Shown here: piece by piece, positions 414-38,397 of the stretch
How the letters are laid out: each line of letters opens with the position of its first letter
How positions within the stretch are numbered: the first letter of the stretch is position 1
Program-made: the position numbers and the translations under genes
DNA from: Asterionella formosa
Taxonomy: Eukaryota
Assembly: GCA_002256025.1 (NCBI GenBank)
Contig: NKIB01014098.1
Span: 1 to 47,776 of the forward strand
Direction of reading: 5' to 3'
Length of the DNA: 47,776 nucleotides
Notes under the pieces: model-generated
Told to the model about the DNA's origin: nothing
The model's input: the letters and a program-made list of their open reading frames with translations, nothing else
Database searches by the model: none

Positions 414-1634
414 TTACAAATGTGTTGACTTCAGGTGGTTGGACCTTTCCATCGCGACTTTCTCGTTGCTCGTGTCGGCTCCACTCTCAACCTCCTTTTG
501 CTGTGGCGTAATATCGCGTTCCACCGCCATGGCAGTGCTGGCATCCATTCGATCTAAATTCAATTTCCGTCGTTGAATTTTCCTCGTCCACACTTTAACT
601 GACCGAAGATTTTTTTTCGTCACATCGACGATATTTTGAGCGTCAGAAGAATATTTTTCCGTCCCCCGCACGAGCCTATCTACATCTTTCAACATTTCCC
701 CAATTTCTGAACGCATGTCTGCTGTTTTTTGCTGCAATGACATCCCTCGAACAACACCACGGAGGGTCGTCAAGACCGCCATGAGCGTAGTGGGGCAAGC
801 AATCCACACACGATGTCGATTGGCTTCTTGCCAAATGGCCGGAAAGTCTTGCACTAATTGGGCAAAGAGGGACTCGGAAGGAAGAAATAAAATGGCACAA
901 TCCGCCGTTTCTCCGGGGATGATATACTTGTAGGCAATATCCTTAATGTGCTTTCGAAAAGAGTCTTCCACCTTTAGGCGGAGAGCCTTTTCCGAATCAG
1001 GACGGGACGTATTATTTTCCGAGGAGGTTTGTTCCATACATTCATTGAGTTCCAAGAAAGATTCCAATGGGAACTTTGAGTCAATGGCCAGGGATCCAAT
1101 TGGTGATGGGAGATACAATATACAGTCGGGTCGTTTACCATTGGATAGTGTGTATTGAAAGTCGTATGACCCTTGGTGCATAGCATCACAAATAATGGCT
1201 TCTAAATGAAGCTCTCCGAAAGTGCCTCGCCTTTTAGGGGATGTGAAAATTCGCACCAAGTGCTCCACTTGGAGTGTCATGGTCTGCAACTCTTGTCTAA
1301 CCGATTGGATGGGAACTAATCGATCTTGAATGATCTGGTAGTGACTTGCCAGTCGCTTCCCAATTTCACGTTCTTGGGATTGTAGGGACGTAACAAAGTG
1401 GTTAGTCGTGGTAAGTAGTGATTCCTCTACTTTTTTGCTAATGTCTTGATGAATGTCACGTCTTAGCGCTTGTGTCATGTCTCGCATCATTTTCGACACT
1501 GAGGCTGTTTGATCCGCAATGAGGGCCGTATTGGTCCTCGGGAACCGCCCTCGGGAGGCCACCATCAGTATCCCACCACATGCCGCTCCCACAACTGCAG
1601 CGCCCACGACAGTAGAAGACTCATGATTACTCAT
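414..1634 (-). CDS. rmuC: RmuC-family DNA recombination protein (PD-(D/E)XK nuclease fold with N-terminal hydrophobic anchor and coiled coil)
   Basis: Uninterrupted ORF with RmuC motifs RGTFGELHLE, RPDCILYLP, IDSKFPLE, KYIIPGETADCAILFLPSESLF and VWIACPTTLMAVL. First in-frame ATG is at 1634; the ORF track starts at a TTG at 1655 and an in-frame TGA lies at 1662-1664. Confidence 0.88.
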   Translation of the reverse strand: MSNHESSTVVGAAVVGAACGGILMVASRGRFPRTNTALIADQTASVSKMMRDMTQALRRDIHQDISKKVEESLLTTTNHFVTSLQSQEREIGKRLASHYQIIQDRLVPIQSVRQELQTMTLQVEHLVRIFTSPKRRGTFGELHLEAIICDAMHQGSYDFQYTLSNGKRPDCILYLPSPIGSLAIDSKFPLESFLELNECMEQTSSENNTSRPDSEKALRLKVEDSFRKHIKDIAYKYIIPGETADCAILFLPSESLFAQLVQDFPAIWQEANRHRVWIACPTTLMAVLTTLRGVVRGMSLQQKTADMRSEIGEMLKDVDRLVRGTEKYSSDAQNIVDVTKKNLRSVKVWTRKIQRRKLNLDRMDASTAMAVERDITPQQKEVESGADTSNEKVAMERSNHLKSTHL

Positions 1635-2284
1635 GTTGTTGATGTCAATTGACAAAGTTGTTCAACTGACATGGGGAACTGAAATAATGTGATGATTGTG
1701 AGAGAACGAAAGCTTGACAACGCAGCATGGCGCTCCTTCCTTTGCATAATAATGCAAGAAATTACCGTTCGCCTATACTTAGTCATCTGTAGAGGCGTTC
1801 TTGTTGTTTTAATGAATACGGTAGACGAGTCGCTCCATATATCATGCCCATGGGGGGTTTTTTGTCTGTCGAGCATATTACTTACTACCGGTACAGCTAC
1901 TTTCTGGTTAACACACGTATCGGTACATGAAGAGATTTGGGGGTTTTAAAATCTACAGTGGAACCTCCCTACAAGATTTACACTGTTTGCTCCGTCTGGT
2001 ATTGCACGTTTTGTGCGCAGCCAACTTTTCAGTTTCGACGCAATCCCAATGGATTGTCTCAATGCATGCCAGACGAGATAGGCTGGCTTTTCATTCCAAA
2101 CTCTCTCAAGTAACTTTCTTCCATGTTAGATTATCATTCATTACATCCAAGTTGTGTTCTGATAATAGAAATCGTGTTCACTACTGCTATTGGTAAGAAT
2201 GGTATTCAATAACTGGCTGGATGATGATGGTTGCTTTGTTGCTAATGGAATTCACCAATAAAAAATATCAGTAACTTTAGTTGA

Positions 2285-3799: not shown

Positions 3800-4662
3800 G
3801 TGTTCAAATAAATCATTTTCTGCTACATATTTACATCAGTAATTTTTAACCAAGCAATCCATCTCGTGCGGTTATAGTTAGGAACTTTATTGGATACATC
3901 ACTGATTGCTGCCATAATACCACCTTTATGCAAGGCACTGTCATCCTCGCTCCTCATCACCTTCATCAACATATTCAGTAACCAAATTCGCAATTAAAGA
4001 TTCAGGACATGGTATTGTATATTTTTGTACATACTAATGAACATCCACTTCTCCAAGCCTCTATATCAGCTCCTTCACTTCAGTTTCAGTTTCCTCTGGT
4101 ACTGACACACATTCGTCATTACATACTAGTACTTTATCAAACCCACAAACTTTAAAGCCTTTTTGAATTGTTTCAGTTGTAAGACTTCCTCAGATGTAAC
4201 CATAAACTTCATTGCATCTATAGCCTGCAATTTCTTAGCCAGATCACACAAACTAGCCAAAAAAAGCTTTCCATTCTTCATCCTTATTTACATCTTCATT
4301 CCCAGACTCTCCACAAATAGCATAGGATTGACATTGTGTCGTTTCTTCCATTTTTCAAGCCAGCCATGATTAGATGCCTTAAAATTATGATATACTTTGA
4401 ATTCTTTGGCAATCAATAAAGCTTTGCTTTGTAGGATTGGTCCACTAATTGGATATCCATTTGTGTGAGCAGTACAAAACCATCTCAACAATACTGTGTT
4501 GATTTCTGTACCACTAGTATTAAGGTGAGCCATTTTCATTGATTGCATCAATTCTCCTTCCGTCATTAAATCCTTCTTCGTTTTCTTTGCTTTTTGAACA
4601 GTTCCAATGCTTATGGCAGGTTTAAAAGCAACCTCCTCAACAGCCTTCTGACATGCATTCAT
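3800..4662 (-). pseudogene. Degenerate pogo/Tigger-type transposase (CENP-B/Tc5 HTH domain)
   Basis: ORF 4288-4662 encodes LLRWFCTAHTNGYPISGPILQSKALLIAKEF...FKASNHGWLEKWKKRHNV, a typical CENP-B-type HTH. Downstream sequence is broken by stops; the lower boundary is approximate. Confidence 0.8.
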
Positions 4663-4704: not shown

Positions 4705-5420
4705 NNNNNNNNNNNNNNNNNNNNNNNNNNNNNNNNNNNNNNNNNNNNNNNNNNNNNNNNNNNNNNNNNNNNNNNNNNNNNNNNNNNNNNNNNNNNNNNN
4801 NNNNNNNNNNNNNNNNNNNNNNNNNNNNNNNNNNNNNNNNNNNNNNNNNNNNNNNNNNNNNNNNNNNNNNNNNNNNNNNNNNNNNNNNNNNNNNNNNNNN
4901 NNNNNNNNNNNNNNNNNNNNNNNNNNNNNNNNNNNNNNNNNNNNNNNNNNNNNNNNNNNNNNNNNNNNNNNNNNNNNNNNNNNNNNNNNNNNNNNNNNNN
5001 NNNNNNNNNNNNNNNNNNNNNNNNNNNNNNNNNNNNNNNNNNNNNNNNNNNNNNNNNNNNNNNNNNNNNNNNNNNNNNNNNNNNNNNNNNNNNNNNNNNN
5101 NNNNNNNNNNNNNNNNNNNNNNNNNNNNNNNNNNNNNNNNNNNNNNNNNNNNNNNNNNNNNNNNNNNNNNNNNNNNNNNNNNNNNNNNNNNNNNNNNNNN
5201 NNNNNNNNNNNNNNNNNNNNNNNNNNNNNNNNNNNNNNNNNNNNNNNNNNNNNNNNNNNNNNNNNNNNNNNNNNNNNNNNNNNNNNNNNNNNNNNNNNNN
5301 NNNNNNNNNNNNNNNNNNNNNNNNNNNNNNNNNNNNNNNNNNNNNNNNNNNNNNNNNNNNNNNNNNNNNNNNNNNNNNNNNNNNNNNNNNNNNNNNNNNN
5401 NNNNNNNNNNNNNNNNNNNN
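4705..5420. other. Assembly gap
   Basis: Run of N. Confidence 1.
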
Positions 5421-5460
5421 CTTCCACGACATATCGTTGTTTGAACTTCTGAATCTATCG

Positions 5461-7158
5461 ATGATGAGCAGGATCTTCCCCTTGTTAACATTTTTTGGTT
5501 GCACTACGTTCCCTGCTTCTCTCCTAGCATTGAATATATCTCACGACGTTGCGGGCTTGTTTGATGGCGTAGCGATTGGAGGAAAAAATGAAAGCAATCC
5601 AAGCAACTTCGCTCAAGATCGAGTTGTCGGTGGTCAGCAGGCATCCCGAAATGCCTACCCCTTCTTTTCTACAGTGTATTTGCGAGGACAATCTGAATTT
5701 CATTGTGGAGGATCCCTGATCCATAGTGATGTAGTCTTGACGGCAGGTACGTACTTTGCGCTCTCGTTGGCACAAGATTGCAATGTTTTCATCTTGCGTG
5801 ACATCCATTCACGCAACTTTAAAATCTCATCTTTTTCAGCACATTGCAACGACGCCGACGCTTATCATGTGGTTGTCAACGCATATTACAAATATAAAAA
5901 TTATAGTGGTCATTATAACCGTGCTGTCAAAGAATTCATTCCTCATCCCGACTTTGACGGCGATACGAATCAGAATGATTACATGCTGCTGATATTGAAA
6001 ACTCCCGTATACAACATTCAACCAGTTGTACTAAACACAGATTCGAACCTGCCTGAAGACTTCGAGCAGCTCACTGCCATTGGAATGGGAGACACGACGG
6101 GATATGGGATTTACCCTAGCTTCCTTCGAGAAGTTACGGTTACCAATTGGGATGACAATACATGCTATAATTTATTGCGCAGTGATTGGGGAGATAATTG
6201 GTACTTTTCCGACAGTCAATTGTGTGCCAGTGTTAGTGGTGGAGGCAAGGATACATGTCAAGGTGACAGTGGTGGCCCACTTTTAGATGCGAATGGTATG
6301 CAAGTAGGTGTGACGAGTTGGGGAGAGGGATGTGCCGAACCTAATTCTCCAGGAGTATACAGTAGAGTATCTAAAGTTGCTTCGACGTGGATAAAAGATA
6401 CTATTTGTTCACGGTCGCAAAACAAACCATCCTACTGCTTCCCCACGCCACCACAAAGTCCTGCACTATCACTTCCACCAGATTTCTGCTTTTCTGGGGA
6501 AACCACAGTTGCTCTCAAGGACAAATCTGACCCTGTGCACATGAAAGACCTGAAACTAGGCGACGAAGTTCTCACTTGCACTGGAATGTTTGAAACTGTG
6601 TATAGCTTTGGTCATCGTCACGAGACTATGGAAAGTACCTTTCTGCAATTCTTGCCATCCAACCTTGAAATCTCAAAAGACCACATGCTAAAAATAGACG
6701 GGAGATACATTCCTGCTTCTCAAGTTCAAATAGGAGATCAACTCGAGGTCGCAAGCGGGGAGTTTGTAATCATAAAAGGCATTCAAACTGTGATTCGAAA
6801 GGGCGCGTATGCACCGTTCACGGCGTCGGGAACCATCCTAGTGAGCAATATCAAAGTTTCCAATTACATCGCCTTTCAAGATTCAGATTGTCTTGTAATT
6901 GGAAGCTGGAAGACACCACTGACATACCAGTGGTTAGCACACATGTCTCAAGCACCACACCGAATATGGGTTCGCCTCTTTGGAATCAGTGAAACATATT
7001 CAGAAACTGGAATGTCCAGTTGGATCGACGGCCCCCATAAACTTGGATTGATGTTCTTGAGACAGAATTCTGTTGTGATGACAATCCTTTTGATTCCTAT
7101 GTTGTTCTGTGCTCACGTTGTGTTTGCTCTGGATGCAGTCATGTCCTGGGTGATTTAG
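5461..7158 (+). CDS. Secreted trypsin-like (S1) serine protease fused to a Hedgehog-type Hint (Hog) domain and C-terminal hydrophobic tail; exons 5461-5746 and 5840-7158
   Basis: Hydrophobic N-terminus; activation site R|VVGG; TAAHC restored by splicing the GT-AG intron 5747-5839; NDYML; DTCQGDSGGP; VTSWGEGC. A Pro-rich linker follows, then CFSG (Cys at 6487)...DLKLGDEVL...ISKDH...GAYAPFTASGTILVSNIKVSNY, then WLAHMSQAPHR and a hydrophobic tail. The start lies only 40 nt from the gap. Confidence 0.92.
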   Translation: MMSRIFPLLTFFGCTTFPASLLALNISHDVAGLFDGVAIGGKNESNPSNFAQDRVVGGQQASRNAYPFFSTVYLRGQSEFHCGGSLIHSDVVLTAGTYFALSLAQDCNVFILRDIHSRNFKISSFSAHCNDADAYHVVVNAYYKYKNYSGHYNRAVKEFIPHPDFDGDTNQNDYMLLILKTPVYNIQPVVLNTDSNLPEDFEQLTAIGMGDTTGYGIYPSFLREVTVTNWDDNTCYNLLRSDWGDNWYFSDSQLCASVSGGGKDTCQGDSGGPLLDANGMQVGVTSWGEGCAEPNSPGVYSRVSKVASTWIKDTICSRSQNKPSYCFPTPPQSPALSLPPDFCFSGETTVALKDKSDPVHMKDLKLGDEVLTCTGMFETVYSFGHRHETMESTFLQFLPSNLEISKDHMLKIDGRYIPASQVQIGDQLEVASGEFVIIKGIQTVIRKGAYAPFTASGTILVSNIKVSNYIAFQDSDCLVIGSWKTPLTYQWLAHMSQAPHRIWVRLFGISETYSETGMSSWIDGPHKLGLMFLRQNSVVMTILLIPMLFCAHVVFALDAVMSWVI

Positions 7159-8954
7159 ACTGAGGGAACGGATGAGGACTAGCTAGAATTGATCATTATA
7201 TGTAATTTAGAGTGAGATAAGGTGAAACATGAACAGAGCTATTATCTATTCTCGCCTTAAAGTATGACTCAAAAGGCTGTTTCTGTTATCATATGTTCAA
7301 CCGATAATTTCAACCACTCCCCCAGCTATAGACAATACCAGGAATATATAGTATTGAACTGTAATGAAGGAAAAACCGCTACAAAGAATTTCTGGATCCA
7401 TAATTACGGATGACCTACAGGCCAAGCAGGATATATTCTGATACCACAGAATTTGCACCATGTCATCCTTCAGCTTGTCTGGTACAGGTGAATGGATTAT
7501 AATTGGTGCAATTAAATAAGCATCAGTAATAATATAGGATACGATGTACACATCATCCTGTTTTATCCAGTACTTTCAAGGACACTATCATAACAGTTGC
7601 AATGTTCTCTAGGTAGGTGCACTATCCTGCTCGCTTTGATCGCTTTCCCTTTAATAAACTACCAGCCACTAAATGGAATAAATGCACAGCTTGAACTTAG
7701 TTGCAAGATACGCTATTTATTGTTTAACCAACAAGGTGTTGAGACTTCCATACCAAGTTCATTAGCCATGTACACTTCATGTACATTCGGTACAAAACTC
7801 CCATCAAATGAACAGAAAAAATAAAGTTAATTCATTGTATTCTATTTGTTAATGTAGTTGCTATAACAGTATTATTACCAGTCACCATCAAGGAACAACA
7901 ATCAACAACAACATGAGCAATGCCAATGACATTTGGGATGGCAATATCCTTGATGGCTTGAGAGGTATTATCTAACTTCATTTTTATGGCGTCTTAGAAC
8001 TATACTGCTGGTACAGATTAGATTGCAGGGCGCCCCTTGGCGATATAGGTAACTGGGATCAGCCCAACAAACATGGTGAAGCCAGCATCTATGTAGCGGA
8101 GGAAGGTGGATAGTGTTGGATGCCCACTGTCATGAGAACAAGAATGGCAGGAAAAAAATTCTTGATTTGCTCGCCAACCAGAACTCTACCTCTGAATACG
8201 CACTCATTGCGATTATTAGAGTTTGGTGGCCCTTTGAATTAGTTCTTCAGAAGCCCTAATCACCTTGGGAACCCTTCCGACCAAAATTAACTTTGTTTGC
8301 ACCGTTTTTACTTGTACCAGCCAGCCACACCTGAGGTGGTCTAATTTGTCTTTGTTGTGCTTCTTTTTTTTAATCGAAAGATTTCGTAATGGATGATTGT
8401 CCTTGTGCTGCCAGCTTTGCTGAGACCGCATATAAAAACATTTCTTTTTCTTGCATCGTCTACTTTTAATGGTGAGAATCCCAGGCGCATATCAAACCTT
8501 TATTTTTATGTATTTCTCAAATCCTGAGATCCATGGCTAATTAAGCAATATTGGAGTAAGTACTGTCTTGTGGAATGCCTCATTTCTCTCCTTCTGAGCG
8601 TTCATAGCTAGCAACCAGATTTGGTTGGTCGCCATTCTTGACCAACAAATCCCTGTGGCCATGGTTTTCTATTTGCCCTCCTGGGTGTGGATAGTAACTG
8701 CCTGTTTCCATGACTTGCTGAGGTTCCCCGCCCGCATGATTAATTTCATACCAAGATAGGCTTGATCTATGAGTGCCTTGAGAATCATCGCTTTAGTCAA
8801 TTATGCTGGTGTGCAGGGCGCGAAAACAGTTTGAAACTCAGTAGTGTTTCCCGACAATAAATATTTGTAGTAATTTATAAGCACCGGCTATATATTTGAG
8901 AGTCAAAGAACGTCATGCTCAAATTTCGATGATATTTGATCTTACTAGGTTTCT

Positions 8955-11168: not shown

Positions 11169-12608
11169 ATGAGCGTCGAAGGAAATGAAAAGGAAATTCC
11201 TGAAGTGCCCCTTTCTTCTGATGCCGATGAGCCCCCCAAGTCCTTCCAATCAAAGCTCTGGAAACAAGTGGTTGCATTCTATTTCGCAAATGAGTTCATG
11301 ATCTTGGCCATCTTGGCAATCATCATCGCCAAAGCGTACCCTCCTTTGGGTGCTAAGTATTTAAAGCCGAAAATCACAGCTTCGTGGATTGCTGTCATCT
11401 TTATCTTTTGTAAGTTTTGTCCGAGTTGATTGCAATTCATGATAGCCCTCAACTATTGTTTTTGTGTTCTGTCGAAACTCAAGTTCATCGACAACTCACA
11501 CGTATTCCCTCCTTTTCACCTCAAGTTCTGGCTGGAATATCGCTGAGGACCGAAGAAGTTGCCAATGCCTTTGTGAGAGTCTATTTTAATCTTTTTGTTC
11601 AGGTTTTCAACTTTGGCGTCGTTTCATCCATTGTATTCGGGTTTTCTCGTTTAATGATTGAAGTTGGAGCTATTTCGAAGGCCATAGGAGATGGAATGGT
11701 CATTTGTGCTTGTCTTTCAATCACAGTGAACGTGTGTGTGGTGATGACCATTGGTGCTGGTGGAGGTGAGACTTCAATTCATAATTTCTTCAGTACTCTC
11801 ATTTGTTCAGATCACTACCCAGTAGTGAAGAATTCCTCTCACACTTTGTATCTTGAATGTCCTAACAGACGAAGCTGCTGCTATTTTTAATGCTACTTTC
11901 GGAAATATTGTCGGAATTTTCTTAACTCCTGCTTTAATCCTTCTTTATATTGGGAATTCGGGAGGAGTTCCTATTGGCAAAACGATTTCCACACTTGCAA
12001 TCCGAGTTTTAGTTCCTCTTGTTGTTGGTCAGTTGATCAGAAAGATATCAACTCGTTTTACAGCCTTTGTCAAAAAATACAAGTACTACATTGACAAGGC
12101 ACGCGAGTACACACTTGTTTTCATTATTTACACCTCATTTTGCACTACATTTGCCAAAAGTAAACATAAACCCAATGCTGGTGATCTATGTTTTCTAATT
12201 TTGTTTCAGTTCATCCTCCTTTGCACCACTATGGTCTTGGCTTGGTTCCTATTACGGGTACTGTTTCGTAATGAACCAAAGCTCCGAGTTATGGGACTTT
12301 TTGGCTGCACTGAGAAAACACTTACTGTGGGCCTCCCTCTGATCAGTGCAATCTATGCAGGCAACAAAAACCTTGGACCTTACACATTACCACTCTTGGT
12401 GTGGTATGCGATGCAATTTATCCTTGGAACAGCTCTTACTCCCAGGCTCAAGGCCTTTGTGGAGACTGAGACCAAGAGGTTAGGCACTGTCAATAAGAAT
12501 CCAGAGACTGTCAAACCAGCAGGCTTGGAAGAAGAACCTGCAGACTTGGAAAGCGAGGCTGCAGAAGTGCAAGCAATTGATCACAAGGCACTTTCTCATG
12601 AAGCATAG
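11169..12608 (+). CDS. Sodium/bile-acid symporter family (SLC10A7/SBF-like) membrane transporter; exons 11169-11409, 11526-11765, 11869-12608
   Basis: Three hydrophobic ORFs are joined in frame by GT-AG introns 11410-11525 and 11766-11868, giving IFIFFLAGISLRTEE and [25 protein letters not shown]. Family-like motifs FGCTEKTLTVGLPLI and LPLLVWYAMQ. Confidence 0.9.
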
Positions 12609-15099: not shown

Positions 15100-18000
15100 T
15101 GAGTGAAGCAAAGAAGGCTGGAACAGTCCTGGAGTCGGTCAAGGTCATTCCTTTTTATGGAACTGACACTACAAAGGGGGGAGTTGAACCCCGAGAATTT
15201 TTCAAGAAAGCTGAGGTATTCGCTGCAACAAAGGGTTTCAAGAAGGTGTTACTCGAAGAATGAGTTCTTCCAAGCTGGGCAGAGAAAGAAGAGATGGAGT
15301 TGATGAGACAAGATGATGATGAAGCAAAGCATTTTCTTATTATGTCATGCAGAGGTGACGCTTTTGCAATCATTGAATCATATGAAAGAGCATACCAAAT
15401 GTTTCAAGCCCTCAAGGACCGGTACGACTCAAAGAAGACAAAAGATTTGGTAAAAGCAAAATCAAACTTGAAAAGTGTTACATGAAATCAGACATAGATG
15501 ATCCCTACCTTTGGATTGTCGATATGGAACGATTGAACAGGGAAGTGGAAAAGTGCGAAAATGGATCAAGACGCAATGAAGAGCAAATGCAAGCAACCAT
15601 ATTAGCAAGACTACCAAAACGAAGATATGAATCAGTGATTACATCTCTAAATGGAAAGATTGGTACAAAAGTATTTGACAATAAGGACTTCATTGCTGAG
15701 ATCATTGGCCATTATGAGATGATTGTGGAGCCATTCAAAAATCGTCAAAATCGCGGAAATCAAGTTCAAAGAGAGAACAAGCAAGGAAAGGGGAAAGCAT
15801 CTGGCTCTGAATACTACAAGTGGAAAAGGTGCCTGGAGAACCTTTAAAGGTAAATACAACAAGTGTGGAAGACAAGGCCACAGAGCAAGAGACTGCAGAA
15901 GCAATGGCAACAGCAACAACAGTGGAGAGAAAGACATTGAAAGACCGAAGGTGAAGTGCTACAGCTGCGGTGGATTTGGACACATTGCAAGAGATTGTCC
16001 AAAGAAGGAAGAGTCTGGTATGTTTGTTGGTATGACAATCCATGGACCTGATATTCGGGAGGATGATGTAAAGAAGAATCAAGAAGCTAAAACAGAGTAT
16101 TTTGACACAAATAAATTCGCAACTGAACTTTTGCAAGATATTGCAGACTATAACAGGAAGAAGAGAAGTGTCTTGAAAGACATAAGAGAATTTAAGTGGA
16201 AACCAAGAAAATACAACAAGTTCCAACAAGTGAAAAGCCAAAAGAAGAAAGTAGAGAAAAAGACCATGAGCTGGGCTGATATGTGTGAGACAAGTGATGA
16301 GGAAGAATATGACGATGTCGACGAAAATGAGAACAGAGGAATTGTTGATGAGAAAGAAATTATTTACCAGATGGAGAAAACAAGCCATGGAGCAGAATGG
16401 ATGTGGGATGAGGAAGTTTTTGCTACAAATTCATTGAAAACCATGATCCCTGTCACAGAGAGTGGACATGAAAGCTGGCTTGTTGACGCAGGGGCAACAA
16501 CCCATGTGTCCATCAGCACTATAAAAATGAGTAATTTGCAGACTGCAACTGAAGGTGAGCATGTGAGGGTTGGACACAATGAAACCCTTAAGGCAACAGC
16601 GATTGGTGATTTAACTCTGGAGCAGAAGGACACAAAGAAAACACTGAAATTGGAAAAAGTGATGGTTGTTCCCGGTTTTGCTCGAAATTTGATAAGTGTT
16701 GGCAGGTTGACAGAGAAAGGAAACGAATTTGTGGCTGGAAAAGAAGGATCCAAGATATTTAATGATTCTGGTGGCATCATGAGTTTTGAGACAGGAACCG
16801 ATGGTATGGCTTATCTGATTGCACAGCGTGCTGCTGGAGCAAAAGAGGTCTACAATATTTAAGAAATTAAAAATGATGATGGAATGATTAAGAAACAGAA
16901 GAGAGATCTAATGAACATTGATGAGGCACACAGAAAACTTGGGCATGCAACAGAAAAAGTGGTGCAAAAAATGCTGCAAGCACTTAAGATCATACCAGTT
17001 GGAAAAATGTTGGTGTGTGATGGCTGTTCACAAGCAAAAGCTACCCAGAAACGAACAAACAAGGTGCCTACAGTGGTAGCAGAAAAACCTGGCGAGAAAA
17101 TCTATATGGATACAAGTGGCCCATATTCAGAGACAGTGATGGGGTCCTGTTATTGGCATAAATTTGTTGATGACAAAACAAGGAAGTCATGGGATTTTTA
17201 TGGAGCAAGAAAAAATGGCATAACAAAGGTACTGAAGGAAATTTTGGACAAGTTAAAGGCTGCTGGGAAGCCAGTAAAATATCTACGGTGTGACAATGCA
17301 GGCGAGCATATGTTTGAATTACGAAAAATATGTGAAGGAGAATATGGAATTCAGTTGGAGTACACAGCACCTCACACACCGCAGCACAATGGAGTGGTGG
17401 AAAGGATGTTTTCACGTGATGCAAAACGTGCGCTCCTGGCAATGATGATATCTGCTGCATGGACCAAAGAGATGCAGGCTAAATTATGGGCTGAAGCGAC
17501 AAAAACAGCAGCGATACTAGGAAATTCCCTTCCAAACACCCGAAGTGCAGTACCACCTGATGAGTTATTTTATGGAAAACCAAGTGACATCTACACACAC
17601 TTGATTGAGTTTGGAAGAGTTGGTTATGTTACAAACAGGTCCACAATGAAAGGGAAGTTCAAAGAGAAAGCAAATCCCATGGTAATGATTGGCTATGGTG
17701 AGAACCATGCCAGGGATGTGTATCGTATGTACAATCCAATAACCAGTAAAGTGGTTGAAACAAGAGATATTCATGCTTGGTGGGCAGCCAGACATGACGA
17801 ATGCTACCAACGAAATCAGATTGACTATGAATGAAATTTATGACCCTGAGTTGATTTTGGAGGAGCCAGAACCTCCAGAAGTGATTGAAGAACCTGATGA
17901 GGACAGTCCTCCTATCCATATAATCCCCACATATGAGGATAAATTGGCAGAATCCACATCGAACCTGGATTTTCCATTGTCTGGAGCAGGGAGGATGTAT

Positions 18001-20288
18001 GAGGAGGAAAAGAAAACTTTAGAAGAACAAGACTCAAGAATTGAGCAAGAATATGAAGAGGATGATGAAGAAAGGAGTGATGAGTCAAATTCGACGCAGA
18101 CAGACGACAGTGATGTTGATGACTTGCCAGAAATTTATAAAAGAACAAATGCTACAGAAATGGAAATGTATGGAGCAGATGATATTACTGTGGAAGCTGG
18201 TGAGCAAGAAGCTGAGAGACCACAACTCAATTCGACAAGGTTGAAAAATGAAATGAAACGGCTGGGAATTGAAGTGCCAATCATGATTGAAGATGGTGAA
18301 ATTGGAATAAGAACACGCAGTAAGACGGATCAAGTGGCATTTAATGCAACACTAGTGTCAGATCCTGGAGAACCTAAGACATTTCGGAAAGCCATGGATG
18401 GTAAAACCCGTGACAAGTGGGAACCATCAGCAGGAGCAGAAATCAATAACCTTTTATCAAGAGATTCATGGCATAAGTTTCCAAGAAAAAATTTCAAGGA
18501 TGGTAAGCCCATACCTGTGAAATGGATATTCAAGGTGAAGGAGGAACAAGATGGTTCAAAAAGGTTCAAGAGCAGGATTGTGCTGAGGGGCTATGTGATG
18601 GTCCCAGCAGGAGTGGACTACACGGAGTCTTTTTCGCCAGTCGCAAAAGATACAACAGTCAGGACAGCAATTGCTATGGCTTTATATCGCCAGAATGAAG
18701 AATGGACAATTGAGATGATAGACATCGAAGCAGCATTCTTAAATGCAGAACTTGAATCAGATAGGCCAGTGTATGCAGAATGGCCAGAAGGCTTGGTGGA
18801 ACTTGGATTTATCACAGAAGAAGAAAAGAAGGAGTTTTGCATCAAACTGACAAGAGCCATTTATGGTGGAGTCAATGTACCGAGACTTTATATGAAGACA
18901 CTGTGCAAATACTTAACAAAGGAAATGAAGATGACTCAGAGCTTGGTGGATCCATGTTTATATTACTGGAAGAGTAAATTGGATGAAGTCACTCTGATGG
19001 CTGTGGTACATGTTGATGACGTTTTATTGATTGGAAGAAAGACAAAAATTGAAAAGTTCAAGTTGGAAATACAGAAGAGGTTTAATATTTCGGATTTGGG
19101 AAGATTGAAGAAGCATCTTGGTGTAAGATATGAATGGAAAACTGATAAAAATGGTGAAATCTACATTGTGGGTAGTATGACAAAGTTGGAGGATGAAATT
19201 GTTGAGTCGTTCAAAAATATAATTGGGAAGAATGCATATTAAGGAGACAGAGACACCAGGATATCCAAAAAAGTTTCTCAGGAAGAATCAAGGAGAGCCA
19301 GTAAAAATGACGGAATATCGTTCTACTATGGTTGGAAAAGTAATGTATTTGATGACAAAGTTGGAAACAGATTTGGCAAAGCAACCCTGCACGAGAGTTG
19401 ACACAACATCTGTCAAACCCAGGCGAGGAGCACTGGAAAGCACTTGAAAGACTGGTTGGACACATTAAAGCAAGATACTATGATGGGTTGACATATCAGA
19501 GCCCAAAGGAGCTGAGGCGTTTTGTCTGGTCTACATACAATCGGTGGTACATTGGTGAACTGGGAGTCAAAGACACAACATGTAGTTACATTGTCAAGCA
19601 AAGAAGTGGAGTATATCAGTTTGGCAAAAGGAGCATGTGAGAACAAGTTCATATCCATGCTACTTGAAGAAGTGATGCAATATCCAAAAGAAGAGAAATT
19701 GGTTTGGCGTGTATACAAAGACAATTTAGGAGCTATCTATTTGATCTGGTAAAGAACCAACATGTGGGTGCACGGGCAAAACATATTGATGTCAGGGCAC
19801 ATTTCATCCGAGAACTTGAAGATCAAGGATATTTGATGGTACATTTTGTACGATCGGAAGAGAACTCAGCTGACATACTAAGCAAGAACTGTCCCAAGAA
19901 GTTGCACACAAAGCACGCAGCAAGGATAAGAAATGGGAATCTTGAATGTTGGAGGGAGGATGTTGAGGATAAACGACTACTGTTAGCAGACAGTAGTATA
20001 TCTATTTCTGTAATGACTGCACAGTCTGCACGACCGACAGTCATGGTGAGGAATTCCATGGAACAAGAAGGTCAGTTCAGGAAAATATATGCGGGATTCG
20101 TAAATGGAATAGCAATTCCTACAGAGCAAGTCCAACATGCAAGATTAAATGATAAAACTGAGACGATTGGAATTGCAAATCTTATGAAATCGACCAATGA
20201 GAAAGAGTGGATTGAGGTGAAGAACAAATCCAAGAAAGTAAGATTCGTGAAACAAGATCAATTTGGCAGGATTGATAGAATTTGTTAA
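15100..20288 (+). pseudogene. Copia gag-pol polyprotein interrupted by stops and frameshifts
   Basis: Consecutive ORF fragments in changing frames. Stops at 15261 and 16860; frameshifts near 15470, 15790, 17780, 19230, 19380 and 19745; an apparent deletion at the RNase H start near 19520. Confidence 0.9.
19951..19960 (+). other. Polypurine tract
   Basis: GGAGGGAGGA immediately before the 3' LTR TG. Confidence 0.9.
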
Positions 20289-24580: not shown

Positions 24581-27500
24581 ATGGCAACATCGTTGTCGCA
24601 GTCCACTGCGGCCTCCGCCAAAAGTCGATATCTGGCGGCGCTGCATGGGGATTCTGCACCGGTAGAACTCAAGGTCAACAGGTCGCCAAACCAATATTCG
24701 AAAACCAGCGCAAAGGATGTAGCAGCTGGTTCCTCTCGAGGGGTGCTAGCGTCCTATCCCCCTCCACCGCCGCCGCCACCGCCACCTCCCAAGGTTGCGA
24801 AGAATAGCATGCATAGTGGTAGCGAACGAGTCCTGGCGAGATGGCAGGTGGCGACGGCAGGTGAAAAGTCGTTGCAAGCGAATCAGAAGTCAACTGGTTT
24901 TGTCGCAAACATCGTGCCCCCTCCTCCTCCGCCGCCGCCCCCCATTGAGGACAAGAAAAAGAGAATGTCGCCTCATTTCATTACCAAGTCGGAAGTACCC
25001 AGTTGGGTCAAGAAATCTAGCAGCATTGAGGACGAGCCGAACGCTGGACATGGCGGCATCAAGGATGTGCCAAGGAATTCTGTGCAGACTTCGTCCTTTC
25101 TACAAGCATCACTTAATTTGACCTCGCAAAATAGTTCCTCTATTCCAAATGAACAGCGGCAATGTGTAGTTTCGCAGTCTCCCCGGAAGTTTCAAGTGAA
25201 CCAGTCTACGTCAGCTCCTGAATCGCCTCGCAATCAATGGGACACCAAAGAGATTCCTGTCGGTGTAGTCAGCCATATAAACAAAGACAAGTTTCTGAAT
25301 TTTGAAAGTCAGAACACTGGCGTGGAGAACCGAATGATGTCCCCACAGTTGAGACAGATGAAATCACAGTGGATGCCAGACGCTGAAATCCCCCCTGGCA
25401 CTGTCAGCGGTCGCAAGGCTGCCTTTATCGGCGGCACTGCTTCAGACAAGAAGACAAGTTTATCTGGTTCGGGTAAGCCACTCGATTTGCTTGGCGCGGG
25501 AAGTACCAAATTCGGTACGCTTACTACGGATGACCCAGCAATGCAACATCTGACTGCTCCTCCAACAACGACAAGTGTTTCTACTCGAGATGTAGGACGA
25601 AGTACTTTTGGGTCTGGGAGCCTCAGCGCCGACAGTGCACTTGACATGCTCGTACCACAAACAGCGTCCCCGCGAAGGCTGGCAGAGCCTCCTACGCCTA
25701 CCCCCGACAGTGTTTCTGCACTAGAGATTGGACTTGATACTTTTGGGTCTGCGAGCGTCAGCTCCGATAGTGCTCTTGATATGCTCGCACCACAACTATC
25801 TTCCCCACTAAGTCTGGCAGAGCCTACCATATCTCCCCACAAAAGTAATGTCGACGACCCCAGAGAATCGGATCCCTGGAGTGTTCCGATTGTAGCGTCG
25901 GGGCATCCTTGTTGGGGTGACGAAGATGTACCCCAATCCACGTCGCAAGACATTTGGGACGACGGTCATGATTGGTTCGGTGAAAATAATGATGGCGATG
26001 ATGAAGCCGATAACGATTTTGTTGACAAAGTACTCATGTCTCCCACTAATGACACGTTGGAAAGCAGCGAAGTGTACCTTTCAGAGAGTAATAGCGAAGA
26101 TGATGCTTTCGCTCAAGTGATGAGCACACGGTCGTCAACTTCAAATTCGCTGATGAATATTGTGAATTCACAACTTCATTCCTCGAATGCTCATCGTCAT
26201 ATGCCGCCTATTTTGACTATCTCGGAATCTATGAGTAGCCCACGGTCTGCTGGACCGGTTGACGTGGACGACAGTTGCAGCGACGAAAATGGGGACGACC
26301 CGGAGGAGGATATTGTCAAGATTCTACCCAAGATAGCGCTTTCTCTGACAACTGCTAAGTCGACAGCTCCTCCCTCTCTTCCTGTGACTCCGATTGCTGC
26401 CATCCCAAGTCAACATACTTCTCTTGATGTCGCGATTGAAACGCCGACACTATTCTTAAACAGTCCGGAGACCACGGAAATTGATGAAAACGTTTCTGGG
26501 GCGATTCCTCTCAAGGCTGCGGATGAAGAAGAATTGTTCGTTGTGCAATCTGATGTGAAGAAAAAAGAAGGCAAGAAGCGGCGTGGGATCTTAAAATTTT
26601 TTGGTATCAATAAAGATTCTTTCAAGAAGAAGGACACGAAGGAGGTAAAAAACAACAAGAATCTTGCCAAGTCGAAGAATACTCGTGGTGGAAAGGATGT
26701 GCGTGGAAAGACCGTTCACGATTCGGATTCAAAACAGCTTGTTGAGGGCAGCAAGCAAGATGACCGTGCTGGGCCAGTTGTTCCTGTCGTAACTTTGCAA
26801 GAAGAAAGGAGCTCAACCAAAGAACCAGTGACGGTGGATGAACTTGTAGTCCCATTAGAAACCGCCCATGATATGAGAGCTGTGCTTGTGCCTCTAAAAA
26901 CTTTACCCGAGTCAAGTTCAACCAATGGCAGACCTACCAAAACTGCCAAGCCGTTTTCTATTGAAAACAACCCAGCTGACGATGGACAAGAAAATGTGAA
27001 AACTAGTCCTTCGAAGCCTAGCCATTTTTCGTATCAAACCGGATTAGACGATGGGTCCATTGTCTCGGAAATGACAAACCCAACAGTCTTTACCAAAATC
27101 AAAGCTTTAGAAGCTTTGGAAGAAAAATCTTCTGGACCGAGTGTAGTAGAAGACTATGCAGTAACAGTTGCGCCAAAACCTGTACTGTTAACAGAGGAAA
27201 CGGCAAATAACTTGACAACCCGACAAGCTCTTGATCCCTTTGATCTGAACTCCCCTGTATTTGCTAGTGGCGATCCCTTCGGATTTGGAAACATGGATAT
27301 GTCCACTCAAGATGCTGACCCATTTGGCGATTTTTTTTTCGAGAGTGCGTCCGTATCAAGTCAGTTAACACCAAGGCAGTCACAACGCGCAGTAGAGCCG
27401 CTTTTAGCTCAATCTTTGCAAGATTCTGAACCGATCGCGGATTCTCGAATGCCATCGCTTGCTGTTAAGTCGTTTTACCAGGAAGTGCCAGAACAGGGTT

Positions 27501-30500
27501 TATCACCCAAGTTTGCAATCCGGGTGGAAAGCCCGAAAATTAATCTGGAGCCAGAAGAGCCGTTTGATTTCAGTGGCTCCGAGATTGACTTGAAGAATTC
27601 CGCTGAAATGGAGCCTCCGTCCCTCTCCCGCAAACCTGACCCAATCCAATCACCTCTCAATCATGTACCAATTGACACCATCCCCGTTGTGGACGGTGAT
27701 TCTGATCCTGAGATTTACATGGCTTCCACCGATGAAGAGGAGGAGAATGGTATTCATTCAAATGAAGTTGAAACCCTGAATCAGCGACTTTCTGTTTCTT
27801 CGGGAGGGCTTCCTCTTGCCTCGCTAGTTTTTAATAATGGCGATTCCCTAGATCTCAATAAGAATTCGCCAGATTGTACTCCACGAAGAGGCAGCCATCG
27901 AGACATTTCAAAAATTTCCATTCGTAGCAGGAATCCCGAATTACAGGTAGAGACTGATGACAGATCATGGTCTTCTCCAGTTTCACTCAAATCAGCTAAT
28001 GAAGCATGTAGTATGCCCTCCAAGGACCAATCATTCGATTCAAGTGCTGCTGTGTACCCTTCTCAAAGTGCTGCGCTCAACAACAAGCTTCGAAAGAAGC
28101 GCATGGAAAAGAAATTGCGAAAGGCGGGGATCCTAGATGAAAAGGCCCAAGAAAACGACGTGTATCAAACCTCACCTTCCCCAAGGACCGCCCCCTTGAG
28201 AGCGTCAATATCTTTAGGAGTCCAAGAAGATTTTTTAAAAAACGAGAGTACAGAAAAGGCAATAGAGCATAGCTCTTCGCCTTCCTTGACGACCACCGCC
28301 CCTTCAGTTTTGACTACACGTTACTCTAACTCCTCTGTTCCTCCACGGACTGAACAAGTGTCATTATCTCCTAAGGCGGGGAATGTTGACGACGCGATAT
28401 CACGGTCTATTGTTAAAGCCATGGTACCAGACAAAGAATCAGACGCCGTCTCTGTGATTTCTGGAACTTCTACGCTTAGCCGTGATGCAATGAAGATTAG
28501 AAGACCTGCCAAAAACGATTCCTCCGAAGTAGTAGAAGTTTTGGCAAAAGGTACCAATAGAAATTTGCCTCGATCGATTCTTCGGAAGCCTAATCGTGCG
28601 GTTGCTGAAGCCGACAAACCCGCGCTTGGCTTCGATGAGAATAAAGTCACGGACCCCATGCACCGTGCTGGTCTTCGCTTGCTAGCAGCTGCAGTGATTC
28701 CAATCCAAGCTGCAATTCGAAGATTCTTAGCAAAGCGTGAAGCTCTTAACCGAATGTGGGCCATTGTTACTATTCAGACCTACACACGTCGTTGGTTCGT
28801 ACAAAAGCAACTAGCGGACAAGAACAATGCTGCAATTACAATTCAGAAAGTTTTTCGTGGTTGGTTTGCTCGAGATTTTGTAGAAGATCAACACTATTGC
28901 GCAACACAGATCCAACGAGTTGTACGGGGGTACTTTGCGACATTGGCAGTATATGAAGCAATATACAAAGTTACACTTATTCAGAGCTACGTACGCATGA
29001 AGATCGCGGTCGACGAAGCAACATATAAAATGGCTTTTATCATCCAGCTTCAGTCAATAATTCGAAGCTATTTAGTCCGCAAACAGCGGCAACGGCTCGA
29101 CGCATATGCTACCGTAATCCAAAAATCATGGCGCTGTCATGCTACAAGACAGAACTATCAATTTGACGTCTTGGATATTGTCCTAGTTCAATGCCTGTAC
29201 CGTCAGAATAAGGCTCGTGCGTTGGTAGAAAAGAAACGGCAAGAGCGCTTTGTTAAATGCGCCACGATTTTGCAGGCACAATGGAGATCCTATGATTGCA
29301 CAATGAATTATCTCCATTACCTAGCTGATGTACTCATTGTACAGAGTACGATTCGGCGATGGACTGCAGCCACTCATGTTAGGAAGTTACGCAATCAATT
29401 GAACTTTTCGTCTGCAAGGAAGATTCAATCTCAAGCCAGAGGATTTATAGTCCGCAACAACATCCAAAGGATCAACGCTGCTACATCTATTCAAACGGCG
29501 TGGAGAGGGTTTGTTTGTTATGCTGACTATATGTTTACTATTGCAGATGTTGTGATCGTCCAAACTTGCATGCGGTCTTGGCTGGCAAGAAGAGAATCCG
29601 ATGCAGTTCGCCTGGCTCGAGACAATGAATACATTAAGCCCTTGCAAACACTTTGGCGTGGTTATAATGCTCGACAGAATTTCATTAGCTACAGAAAAAA
29701 CGTGATACTCTCCCAGAGTGTGATTCGTCGTTTCGTTGCATGGAGTAAGTATATGAAGGCCCTCACTGAGAAGTATGCAGCTGAAACTATCCAGCGTGGG
29801 TGGTGGGATTACCTCATACGTCGTGATGAGCGATATGCTGCTACTAGTATTCAAAGAGTTTGGAGGGGTTATCATTGCCAAACACTTTATAAAGCCGAAA
29901 TTCATGATTTTCGCGCTGCTCGTACCATTCAAACAGCGTGGCGAAAATTTTGGTTATTTTCCAATTTTATCATCATGTTGGATAGCGCTATTCGTATACA
30001 AGCGATTGGTAGAGGGTTTGTTGCTCGAAACCATATGGAAGAAATGAATATTGCTGCAACAATGATTCAAAGTCATACCCGTTGCTTTCTTGCCCGAAGA
30101 ACTGCTAGTAGAATGTCGATGATTGATGCAGTGATGTCATCAGGACGTGCCATTGCTGGAAACGAGACAAATGCAGCAATCGCGCTGCAAAGTCATGTTA
30201 GAGGATTTCAGGCGCGCTTTGCTGTCTTGCTGTTCCTTAAGGTCAGATTGATCCAGGCGTTCTGGAGGGGTACCAAAGAACGGCATGCATGGGTGATTTA
30301 CCGGTCGTCACGAAAGATACAAGCTGCTTGGCGAGGTTCCATTCCGAGGCGCTCGTATAATCAGTATCGTGCCGCTGTTCGTATTCAAAGTTGCTGGAGA
30401 CGTGCAAGCGCTCGCGATGAATACGTGAAGTATACGTCACCATCAAGTGCAGGAGTTCGTATCAAGAGGTGGTTGATCTTCCGAAGGGACAATAGTAACT

Positions 30501-37247: not shown

Positions 37248-38210
37248 CTAGTCAATGTAAAGCTTCTTATGCTTGTATAGAGGTACCTTTTCCTTGTACT
37301 TTTCAAACAATCCTTCAATCGCTTCACAGTATTTTTGATGCCATTTGTCCACATCATCGTTTGTGGGTTCCAGTATTTGTGGCATCCCCAAAGGCTTGCC
37401 TCTTGCATAGAGACATTTATCATCGCAAGGAATGGGAAGGTACCACTTACCCCAAAAATAGGTTAGTGCCACTCCAAGAGACCGGCTTATGCTCGCCAAG
37501 GGCCCAGACTTAAAAATAGTCAAGACGCTTGTATTGCCAAAAAGGTAAACTGGTACAACATCAACACCTTCTCGCAAGGCCAATTTGATAAACCCCTTTC
37601 GCTTACTTAGAAATAAACGTTCTTCGCTTCTTGATGACTTGAACAATTCTGCAATCCCACCAACATACAAGACGATACATCCATCAATGCCAGATCTGGT
37701 AAACCGCTTTTGAAGAGATGACTTGTCGGCATTCGTTAGGCCATAAATACCCATAACGTGCTTGAGAATAGGCGTATGCATGACGGAGTTTGCCACAGCG
37801 GTATGGACTTTGCGCAAGTCGGGAGGAGCTGCCGGACCCGATGCGATTCCGCAAAAGGAAATGACCCCATGGGGGACGGGAGCGACGATGGATTTCTTGC
37901 CGTTCTTGAGGTCGGCTCGAATTTCGTCATTGGTGTATTCCAGGGCTTCTTCAAAATCAAAATAGTCGAGGAGAGGAGTGAGCTGGCCAACCAGCCAAGG
38001 TGATGCTATGGGAGGAACAAGGGCGCTTATGATGATTGGAGCAGTGAAGAGCAGCGCCGATTTCCAATGAAGGACAAAGAACGACACGATTCCAGCCAGC
38101 AAGTAGAGCGGAGTCAGAATGTAGGCAAGCGAGAAGACTGAGGCAATCAGCAATCCCTGGAGCCAGCGAAAGGATCCGAAGTTGGGGTTGGAGTATACCT
38201 CGTCTGACAT
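37248..38210 (-). CDS. DGAT2: Diacylglycerol/monoacylglycerol acyltransferase, DGAT2 family
   Basis: N-terminal TM hairpin, (V)PHG, YVGGIAE, RKGFIKLA, VPVYLFG and GKPL motifs. An alternative upstream ATG is at 38276. Confidence 0.88.
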   Translation of the reverse strand: MSDEVYSNPNFGSFRWLQGLLIASVFSLAYILTPLYLLAGIVSFFVLHWKSALLFTAPIIISALVPPIASPWLVGQLTPLLDYFDFEEALEYTNDEIRADLKNGKKSIVAPVPHGVISFCGIASGPAAPPDLRKVHTAVANSVMHTPILKHVMGIYGLTNADKSSLQKRFTRSGIDGCIVLYVGGIAELFKSSRSEERLFLSKRKGFIKLALREGVDVVPVYLFGNTSVLTIFKSGPLASISRSLGVALTYFWGKWYLPIPCDDKCLYARGKPLGMPQILEPTNDDVDKWHQKYCEAIEGLFEKYKEKVPLYKHKKLYID

Positions 38211-38397
38211 GACAGCAATATAGATCCCGAGCTGTTCCAGAGAAAGATGGGGACAAAGAAGGATTGAAATCAACATACCGGTAGTTATAGTAGTAAACCT
38301 CTACATAGAGTATTATCAATGGTACAAGGTACCAGTACCTGGTGTCTGTTCCAACCAGTACCTACTGAGCGATCTTGCGCATCAATGCAGATGTATA

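Follow-up and report, generated by a model that had tools for sequence, protein, structure and literature searches.

A trypsin joined to a Hedgehog-type Hint module and a membrane-type helix in Asterionella formosa, a member of a large family of enzyme-Hog proteins

The contig NKIB01014098.1 of the Asterionella formosa assembly GCA_002256025.1 was analysed over its whole length of 47,776 nucleotides (nt), which is called the window below. On its forward strand, the open reading frame (ORF) at 5461-7158 encodes a trypsin followed by a Hedgehog-type Hint domain, a stretch resembling the sterol-recognition region (SRR) of Hedgehog proteins and a terminal membrane-type helix. The part from the Hint domain onwards is referred to here as the Hog module. 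The trypsin-Hog fusion is real and is transcribed as one message, and the enzyme-Hog family to which it belongs is large, expressed and mechanistically informative. The best overall explanation, to which we assign a probability of about three in four, is a membrane-anchored precursor whose Hog module would cut itself off, with release or lipid anchoring of the protease to follow. A preliminary description made from the sequence alone had proposed a self-releasing or sterol-anchored protease of this kind, and as a whole it is partly supported.

The gene and its product are composed of the following parts. Residues (aa) are numbered throughout on the 565-residue translation of the genomic ORF, with intron-encoded residues included.

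5461-5746 (+): first exon of the coding sequence, with start codon, signal-like N-terminus, propeptide, activation site and the trypsin domain as far as LTA (translation; RNA contigs 5457-5743 or 5421-5743)
5747-5839 (+): intron of 93 nt, GT..AG, in frame and stop-free (spliced RNA contigs in runs X1, X3 and X5)
5840-7158 (+): second exon of the coding sequence, with the remaining trypsin, linker, Hint domain, SRR-like region, membrane helix and the stop codon at 7156-7158 (RNA contigs unbroken over 5837-7299 in X1 and 5837-7239 in X3)
7159-7316 (+): 3′ untranslated region as far as the RNA contigs extend (contig ends at 7299 in X1, 7239 in X3 and 7316 in X5)
5623-6411 (+): trypsin (S1A) catalytic domain, interrupted by the intron (Pfam PF00089)
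6412-6486 (+): linker, made of the Cys-bracketed loop CSRSQNKPSYC and a Pro-rich stretch ending in Phe342, residue -1 (sequence)
6487-6867 (+): Hint domain, from CFSG to VSNY (Pfam PF01079, alignments to 6TYY and 1AT0, Foldseek)
6868-7062 (+): region like an SRR or adduct recognition region (ARR), with a short beta segment and two helices (AlphaFold model, family conservation)
6925-6981 (+): helix 1 of that region, aa 489-507, carrying WLAHMSQAPHR (AlphaFold model)
7018-7059 (+): helix 2, aa 520-533, beginning with SW after GMS (AlphaFold model)
7069-7152 (+): C-terminal hydrophobic helix of transmembrane type, aa 537-564 (model helix 204-231 of the C-terminal 232-residue piece)

For the transcript, Logan contigs from four RNA runs of three studies were aligned to positions 5421-7600. 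In three of the four runs (X1, X3 and X5, representing two studies, with X1 and X3 sharing one sample) the contigs skip exactly 93 nt with GT..AG ends. Each of these runs has a single contig that begins at 5457 or 5421, contains one joint only and reaches 7299, 7239 and 6760, respectively, and a second X5 contig spans 6731-7316. Because the contigs have a single joint, the protease, the linker, the Hint domain, the tail and the stop codon lie on one spliced mRNA. The transcripts neither end nor splice before the Hint region, and the fusion predicted by the preliminary description is thus found in RNA. The ORF is present as it had been described, but the intron had been missed. Since the latter is in frame and stop-free, the genomic ORF reads through it, and with the 93 nt removed in RNA the protein has 534 residues and not 565. 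The intron splits the LTA/AHC motif that bears the catalytic His. The contig of the fourth run (X7) is unspliced with 52 differences and may come from a relative or from DNA. The runs containing the gene include lake-water and algal samples; their contigs show the structure of the message, not expression level or true transcript ends.

The database protein P0002 (534 aa) is 98% identical over the Hog part and lacks exactly the 31 intron-encoded residues. Its cluster includes 11 members from Logan, ENA and JGI with the same layout, all of which start with MMSRIF or MSRIF or are incomplete. Transcript-type calls of 534, 533 or 527 residues are without the 31 residues (e.g., P0002, P0237, and P0242), whereas genomic-type calls of 564 residues keep them (e.g., P0236). 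As a side observation, prokaryote-style gene calls (P0236 and P0243, 564-565 residues) read through the in-frame intron and therefore contain 31 spurious residues inside the trypsin active-site motif.

The protease half shows the complete set of zymogen features that had been listed in the preliminary description, that is, a signal-like N-terminus, an R/VVGG site, the His/Asp/Ser triad, the S1 Asp and the Pro linker. The match to PF00089 is strong in the genomic ORF (E 5.4e-45, 154.3 bits against a cut-off of 20.6) and falls in two stretches because the intron interrupts the domain; on the spliced P0002 it forms one stretch (E 6e-51, 173.8 bits). The signal-like segment covers approximately aa 1-24 (hydrophobic window of residues 5-23 with a Kyte-Doolittle 19-residue mean of 1.61) and is followed by a propeptide of approximately aa 25-54 and the activation site R54/V55VGG at 5620-5625. 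The catalytic residues are His128 (5842-5844), Asp173 (5977-5979) and Ser270 (6268-6270), with the S1-pocket Asp264 (6250-6252) located within DTCQGDSGGP. The motifs AAHC (once spliced), NDYML and GDSGGP are present and the usual cysteines are in place. The predicted product is a trypsin-type, Arg/Lys-specific serine protease activated at Arg54/Val55. The spliced P0002 aligns with animal and microbial trypsins of the PDB, including porcine trypsin 4AN7, from the activation site on (E ~1e-30).

The Pro-rich linker between the protease and the Hint domain has the sequence PTPPQSPALSLPP, and the stretch after the CSRSQNKPSYC loop reads PTPPQSPALSLPPDF. In the full-length AlphaFold model, built on 13 sequences, the predicted local distance difference test (pLDDT) is 66.8 and the predicted template modelling score (pTM) 0.47, with pLDDT values <50 in the linker (residues 297-310 of that model). 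As a prediction, this model is uninformative on the placement of the protease relative to the Hog module.

The Hint module is of the Hedgehog type, as indicated by hidden Markov model (HMM), profile and structure model alike. PF01079 matches residues 341-474 (E 1e-16, 61.6 bits against a cut-off of 29.7). The C-terminal 232-residue piece alone finds Drosophila Hedgehog-C 6TYY by sequence with E 0.0019, and a profile from 47 family Hog modules matches 6TYY (6.8e-17), 1AT0 (8.1e-15), full-length fly Hedgehog (5.2e-15) and human SHH (2.4e-13), compared with only 0.0022 for the bacterial intein-like domain 2LWY. An AlphaFold model of the same piece, built on the family alignment, has a pLDDT of 95 and a pTM of 0.89. 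Its top PDB matches in Foldseek are 6TYY (E 1.2e-10, target template modelling score 0.78) and 1AT0 (1.1e-09, 0.76), with mini-inteins, BIL2 and Vint as a second tier, and an ESM Atlas look-up returned generic Hint clusters only. The boundaries at CFSG (6487) and VSNY (6867) were correctly placed in the preliminary description, and the Pfam and structure searches it had suggested for the trypsin and Hint domains came out in its favour. In a six-frame scan of the window with the family Hog HMM, this Hog module was the only one.

Alignment to the C-terminal domain of fly Hedgehog (HhC) assigns the active-site positions as follows, all on the forward strand.

6487-6489 (+, tgc): Cys1 of fly HhC, here Cys343
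6613-6615 (+): Asp46 of fly HhC, here His385
6673-6684 (+): T69 and H72 of fly HhC (TxxH), here Ser405 and His408 (S405-K-D-H408)
6862-6864 (+): Cys143 of fly HhC, here Asn468
before 6487 (+): Gly -1 of fly HhC, here Phe342

Judged from the alignment, the residues of the first step (Cys1 and Ser/Thr-x-x-His) are present, with Ser405 as a conservative replacement of Thr. The active site of fly HhC consists of C1, D46, T69, H72 and C143, and D46H Hedgehog autoprocesses in cells (PMC12054796, the latter in the Fig. 1C legend). The Hedgehog general base Asp46 was not found in the alignments, in which His385 occupies its position. 6TYY is entered in the PDB under the title "Hedgehog autoprocessing mutant D46H". 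Because this engineered Hedgehog autoprocesses, the function of the base may, by analogy, be kept by His. The D46H protein is also said, in work from 2019, to retain cholesterol transfer in vitro. As for position 143, Asn cannot form a branched (thio)ester, and the route through a branched intermediate would therefore be closed in the window protein; cleavage would need the classical direct attack on the linear thioester. The signs of intein splicing were not found either, because VSNY is followed by Ile-Ala-Phe with no nucleophile at +1. In the sequence and the model, no C-extein follows the Hint domain; the SRR-like region and the membrane helix are located there instead.

In the SRR-like region, the model places helices at 156-163, 165-174 and 187-200 of the 232-residue piece (pLDDT 95-98). 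The pattern AH...AP.R is present together with a Trp that opens helix 2, and the His and Tyr of the Hedgehog HWY motif are absent. The hydrophobic tail reaches a Kyte-Doolittle 19-residue mean of 2.48 over residues 538-556. To our knowledge, this terminal membrane helix has no counterpart in Hedgehog. For the Hedgehog SRR, the available portion of the text of PMC7906309 speaks of membrane association and does not contain the word "transmembrane". In human SHH, H374 and R381 of helix 1 and the W of HWY at the start of helix 2 are required for cholesterolysis (the helix-1 residues in cells), and P379 is absolutely conserved (PMC7242414). WLAHMSQAPHR, GMSSW and the hydrophobic tail had all been pointed out in the preliminary description; both the SRR-motif residues and the membrane helix proved to be conserved across the family.

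That family is very large. A HMMER search of 1.84 billion cluster representatives gave 3,891 matches at E<=1e-3, 1,774 at <=1e-10 and 397 at <=1e-30, nearly always over the whole 232 residues and at the C-terminus. The window protein, earlier treated as a single curiosity, is one member among these. Named relatives belong to the araphid pennate diatoms Cyclophora tenuis and Thalassionema frauenfeldii; the Trypsin + Hint protein of the former is labelled just "Peptidase S1 domain-containing protein". Together with these relatives, the spliceosomal intron, the Ty1/copia-type element of the window and the occurrence of the gene in lake-water and algal RNA runs point to a diatom as its source. The cassette shared across the cargoes consists of Hint, SRR and hydrophobic tail. 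The cargoes were counted from precomputed Pfam labels of the best 120 word-indexed relatives, as follows.

Trypsin + Hint: 11 of 120
Peptidase M43 + Hog: 5 of 120
LRR + Hog: 4 of 120
Peptidase M11 + Hog: 3 of 120
SASA esterase + Hog: 3 of 120
TrAA12-like dehydrogenase + Hog: 3 of 120
Peptidase M14 + Hog: 2 of 120
Multicopper oxidase + Hog: 1 of 120
Rhodanese, GH114, sulfatase, GH16, chitinase and others + Hog: 1 each of 120
Relatives without a named N-terminal domain: many of the 120

A re-scan of 38 of the relatives added an S8 subtilase cargo. Since the cassette recurs behind many other secreted enzymes in the relatives, the anchored Hog module seems to serve exo-enzymes in general, for their maturation or anchoring, and not this protease specifically.

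For the conservation of single positions, 233 cluster representatives (P0002-P0234) were aligned to the family HMM.

Cys1: Cys in 223 of 233, the other 10 being without the N-terminus
Asp46 position: His in 231 of 233
T69 position: Ser in 200 and Thr in 31 of 233
H72: His in 232 of 233
Cys143 position: Ser 101, Asn 81, Thr 36 and Cys 6 of 233
Residue -1: Phe 86, Ile 43, Val 18, Leu 18 and Gly 4 of 233, bulky hydrophobic in most
SRR His: 207 of 233
SRR Pro: 187 of 233
SRR Arg (Arg501): 230 of 233
G-x-S-x-W: Gly (Gly517) 231, Ser 223 and Trp (Trp521) 224 of 233

The catalytic set is retained across the family, which would not be expected of a dead domain. Similarly, the SRR residues are kept as strictly as the active site, which would not be expected of a mere spacer. 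At least one membrane-type hydrophobic segment past the SRR was found in all 249 relatives with a complete tail (from a set of 250 that includes 17 near-duplicates), with one segment in 99 and two in 145 of the 249. A glycosylphosphatidylinositol (GPI) signal was considered for the extreme C-terminal hydrophobic stretch and set aside as less probable, given the missing spacer in front of it and the two segments in those 145 relatives. Relatives with two segments have a basic end; a single segment, followed by four residues, is present in the window protein and its closest relatives. From the sequences, the family would thus contain two anchor formats. In P0164 (798 aa), Hint is matched twice (E 1.4e-52), a sign of possible tandem Hog modules within one protein, and P0129 is also matched by the Hog query in two stretches.

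The relation of the Hog modules to their partners was followed in a quick maximum-likelihood tree of 44 modules, limited to those with a named partner. The partners are interleaved on this tree. One trypsin Hog groups with a GH114 Hog as its sister (support 98), and a multicopper-oxidase Hog is placed beside M43 Hogs (support 99). The trypsin label needs five changes, at least four of which are forced by starred branches. On the protease side, the family HMM found a Hog module in none of the 119 new trypsin relatives returned by the protease-domain search. Some Hog-less trypsins are closer (44-49% identity) than other Trypsin-Hog proteins, and 18 trypsins without a Hog module share the C-x-x-S-x-x-KP-x-x-C loop that follows the protease domain. 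A single origin of the trypsin-Hog fusion was rejected on account of the changes on the tree, the close Hog-less trypsins and the shared loop. By these comparisons, the cassette appears to have been joined to cargoes repeatedly, or to have been homogenised within genomes; gene conversion, repeated fusion or species structure may be the source of the pattern.

The explanation that we prefer can be described as a series of steps. The 534-residue precursor would carry, in order, signal peptide, propeptide, trypsin, Pro-rich linker, Hint domain, SRR-like helix-loop-helix and membrane helix. On entering the secretory pathway it would adopt a type I membrane topology, in which protease and Hog module face the lumen and, later, the cell exterior. 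Cys343, aided by Ser405 and His408, would then attack the carbonyl of Phe342 in an N-to-S acyl shift and form a thioester. The thioester would be resolved by a nucleophile activated by His385, yielding the protease (~257 residues once activated) and a membrane-held Hog fragment (223 residues). Either water or an alcohol from the membrane may act as this nucleophile, the latter being, for example, a sterol offered by the SRR-like helices. Attack by water would set the enzyme free in soluble form; with a sterol, the protease would remain at the cell surface on a lipid anchor. Self-cleavage of some kind at Phe/Cys is, on the residues present, highly probable.

Several points weigh against this explanation. 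Cys143 is replaced by Asn468, and residue -1 is the bulky Phe and not Gly. In Hedgehog, C143A and C143D abolish autoprocessing, thiol-induced N-terminal cleavage included (PMC12054796). The Pfam Hint match of this protein ends at profile position 165 of 213, short of the SRR, and the family profile, when compared with full-length Hedgehog and SHH chains, likewise ends with the Hint domain and does not continue into the SRR. The match extends to profile position 197-211 in 10 of the 38 relatives scanned. The SRR likeness, statistically weak for this protein, is thus suggested by the motif reading, the modelled helix-loop-helix and those 10 relatives. No biochemical result was located in the searched literature for any member of the enzyme-Hog family. 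The membrane helix alone could anchor the enzyme, and therefore the anchor is not in itself an argument for lipid transfer. Finally, the start codon adjoins a run of N at 4705-5420; the frame is open across it, which leaves a small chance of a start upstream of 5461.

The preferred explanation leaves two outcomes for the thioester. In the first, a sterol or another membrane alcohol resolves it and the protease is held at the outer face of the plasma membrane by a sterol ester on Phe342. In degree of conservation, the SRR-like residues equal the catalytic ones (Arg 230, Gly 231 and Trp 224 of 233), the position of the general base is His in 231 of 233, as in the active D46H Hedgehog, and the module is always membrane-tied (249 of 249 complete tails), with the tether next to the active site. 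In addition, diatoms make sterols, and a freely diffusing exo-enzyme would be lost to a planktonic cell. On the other hand, Cys143 is absent, residue -1 is bulky, and neither Pfam nor the family profile gives a statistical SRR match for the window protein. Even for the Hog proteins of nematodes the adduct is not known, and their tail was hence named ARR (PMC2362128). Lipid anchoring is thus held only tentatively, at somewhat less than even odds.

In the second outcome, the Hog module is a self-removing tether, kept until the protease is folded or has reached the right compartment, after which the thioester is hydrolysed and a soluble protease is secreted. This is consistent with the absence of the Hedgehog-specific Cys143 and with the next-best structural matches, BIL and Vint, which are Hint domains without a lipid step. 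The 1AT0 fragment is itself a product of hydrolytic cleavage without the SRR, and the Hedgehog Hint domain alone can hydrolyse (PMC7906309). However, release alone leaves unexplained why the ~90 residues of SRR-like sequence before the membrane helix are as strictly conserved as the active site, and why His is almost invariant where Hedgehog has the residue activating the sterol hydroxyl, although this His could activate water too. We consider it a serious candidate, even if on balance rather doubtful.

If no cleavage took place, the Hog module would serve as a catalytically silent stalk, and the intact protein would act as a surface protease anchored in the membrane, as the transmembrane serine proteases of animals do. 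Both Cys143 and Gly-1, which are important in Hedgehog, are absent and the membrane helix would suffice as an anchor, but Cys1, the Ser/Thr and His of TxxH and the base-position His persist in 223-232 of 233 proteins that are 40-60% identical, which makes this reading improbable. That a neighbouring trypsin gene and Hog gene were read as one ORF, or that the assembly is chimeric, would fit the adjoining N run and the genomic read-through of the intron but is extremely improbable, given that contigs from three RNA runs (two studies) span the coding sequence with just the 93-nt intron removed, that all 11 members of the P0002 cluster (Logan, ENA, and JGI) have the same layout, and that ten further diverged Trypsin + Hint proteins are found, one of them in Cyclophora tenuis.

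Compared with known systems, the window protein resembles HhC in several respects: the module is C-terminal in a secreted protein and begins with Cys-Phe, it has the Hint fold with the (S/T)xxH motif and the YAPxTxxGTIxV block, and two post-Hint helices carry AH...AP.R and a Trp. It differs from HhC in having His for Asp46, Asn for Cys143 and Phe for Gly-1, in missing the His and Tyr of HWY, and in its extra C-terminal membrane helix; its cargo is an enzyme, whereas that of Hedgehog is a signalling ligand. Because three defining residues (Asp46, Cys143, and Gly-1) are not found, it is classified, on sequence grounds, as a protist-type Hog and not as a bona fide Hedgehog-type cholesterol transferase.

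The protist-type Hog features are present, namely a signal-like N-terminus, the Hint domain, an S-N-Y motif J without Cys and LAHxxxAPxR (compared with the text of PMC2362128). Similarly, the Hog proteins of protists, red algae and mosses have a signal peptide, a variable N-terminal part, the Hog domain and the motifs J and K, and the Cys of motif J is often Ser, Thr or Asp (PMC2362128), in agreement with the Ser, Asn or Thr of the window family. Contrary to them, the cargoes of the window family are identifiable hydrolases and oxidases and its Hog module ends in a membrane helix. Buerglin (2008) reported Hog domains in alveolates, red algae, mosses, cryptophytes, haptophytes and others, with recognisable N-terminal domains only in Glomus GmGIN1 and choanoflagellate Hoglet (PMC2362128). 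The words diatom, stramenopile, Thalassiosira, Phaeodactylum, protease and trypsin are absent from the available portion of that text.

In the nematode warthog, groundhog and quahog proteins (Hint + ARR), the Hog module is also reused with many N-terminal cargoes. These are small Cys-rich domains and not enzymes, and no C-terminal membrane helix is reported in the part of the literature available for them. BIL and Vint domains (2LWY, 6Y75/6TMM, and 8R2C) share the Hint fold and cleavage without splicing, but their matches are far weaker than those of Hedgehog-C and they do not have SRR-like helices. As a functional analogy, the type II transmembrane serine proteases of animals and the GPI-anchored prostasin are surface-held S1A proteases cleaved at Arg/(I/V)VGG. 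Their anchor is an N-terminal signal anchor or GPI, unlike a self-cleaving C-terminal Hog. Many proteins labelled "transmembrane protease serine 9-like" are among the matches of the trypsin-domain search.

A genome paper of 2025 gives >290 Hint-domain genes (IPR001767) for Pleurosigma pacificum and 112 for Seminavis robusta but does not analyse them further (PMC12803021), and hint-domain proteins in the sexual reproduction of Seminavis were mentioned in an Ectocarpus paper of 2013 (PMC3879662). A literature search in which subscription journals were not covered yielded no account of enzyme-Hog fusions in diatoms, nor of their membrane helix or the active-site variant with His and Asn. The covalent ligation of cholesterol has been called singular to Hedgehog proteins (PMC7242414). 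A large, expressed algal family provides a natural test of whether non-animal Hog domains transfer lipids, and with which residues. The family naturally has the His base that was engineered into D46H Hedgehog and does without Cys143, a residue now regarded as essential. For diatoms, it would offer planktonic cells a possible way to hold proteases, oxidases and glycosidases at the surface or to time their release. For protein engineering, it is a source of numerous divergent Hog modules that accept bulky residues at -1 and a range of cargoes. The boldest form of the proposal, that throughout diatoms an anchored Hog with a His base and no Cys143 transfers sterols or other lipids onto the C-termini of dozens of secreted enzymes, seems to us rather less probable than not. 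If it were true, protein sterylation would be widespread and ancient and not a peculiarity of Hedgehog, and the branched intermediate at Cys143 would be dispensable.

The window contains further genes and elements. Directly upstream of the gene, adjoining the N run, a short ORF at 4288-4662 (-) has a Tc5 transposase DNA-binding domain (PF03221, E 1.2e-14) and is, by sequence, a remnant of a pogo/Tc5-type transposon. A Ty1/copia-type retroelement extends over three ORFs at 15723-19242 (+), with a zinc knuckle and Pol beta-barrel, integrase pieces and an RVT_2 reverse transcriptase; strong positive GC and AT skew is seen at ~14-21 kb. An ORF at 414-1655 (-) shows a full-length match to the RmuC family (E 4.7e-48), which is mostly bacterial, and may be a transferred or organelle-related gene. 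An SBF-like transporter at 11417-12608 (+) is split over two ORFs, probably by an intron or a frameshift. An uninterrupted ORF of 2,498 residues at 24581-32077 (+) has as its sole Pfam match many IQ calmodulin-binding motifs (E 4.3e-58), and a DAGAT-family acyltransferase is located at 37248-38276 (-).

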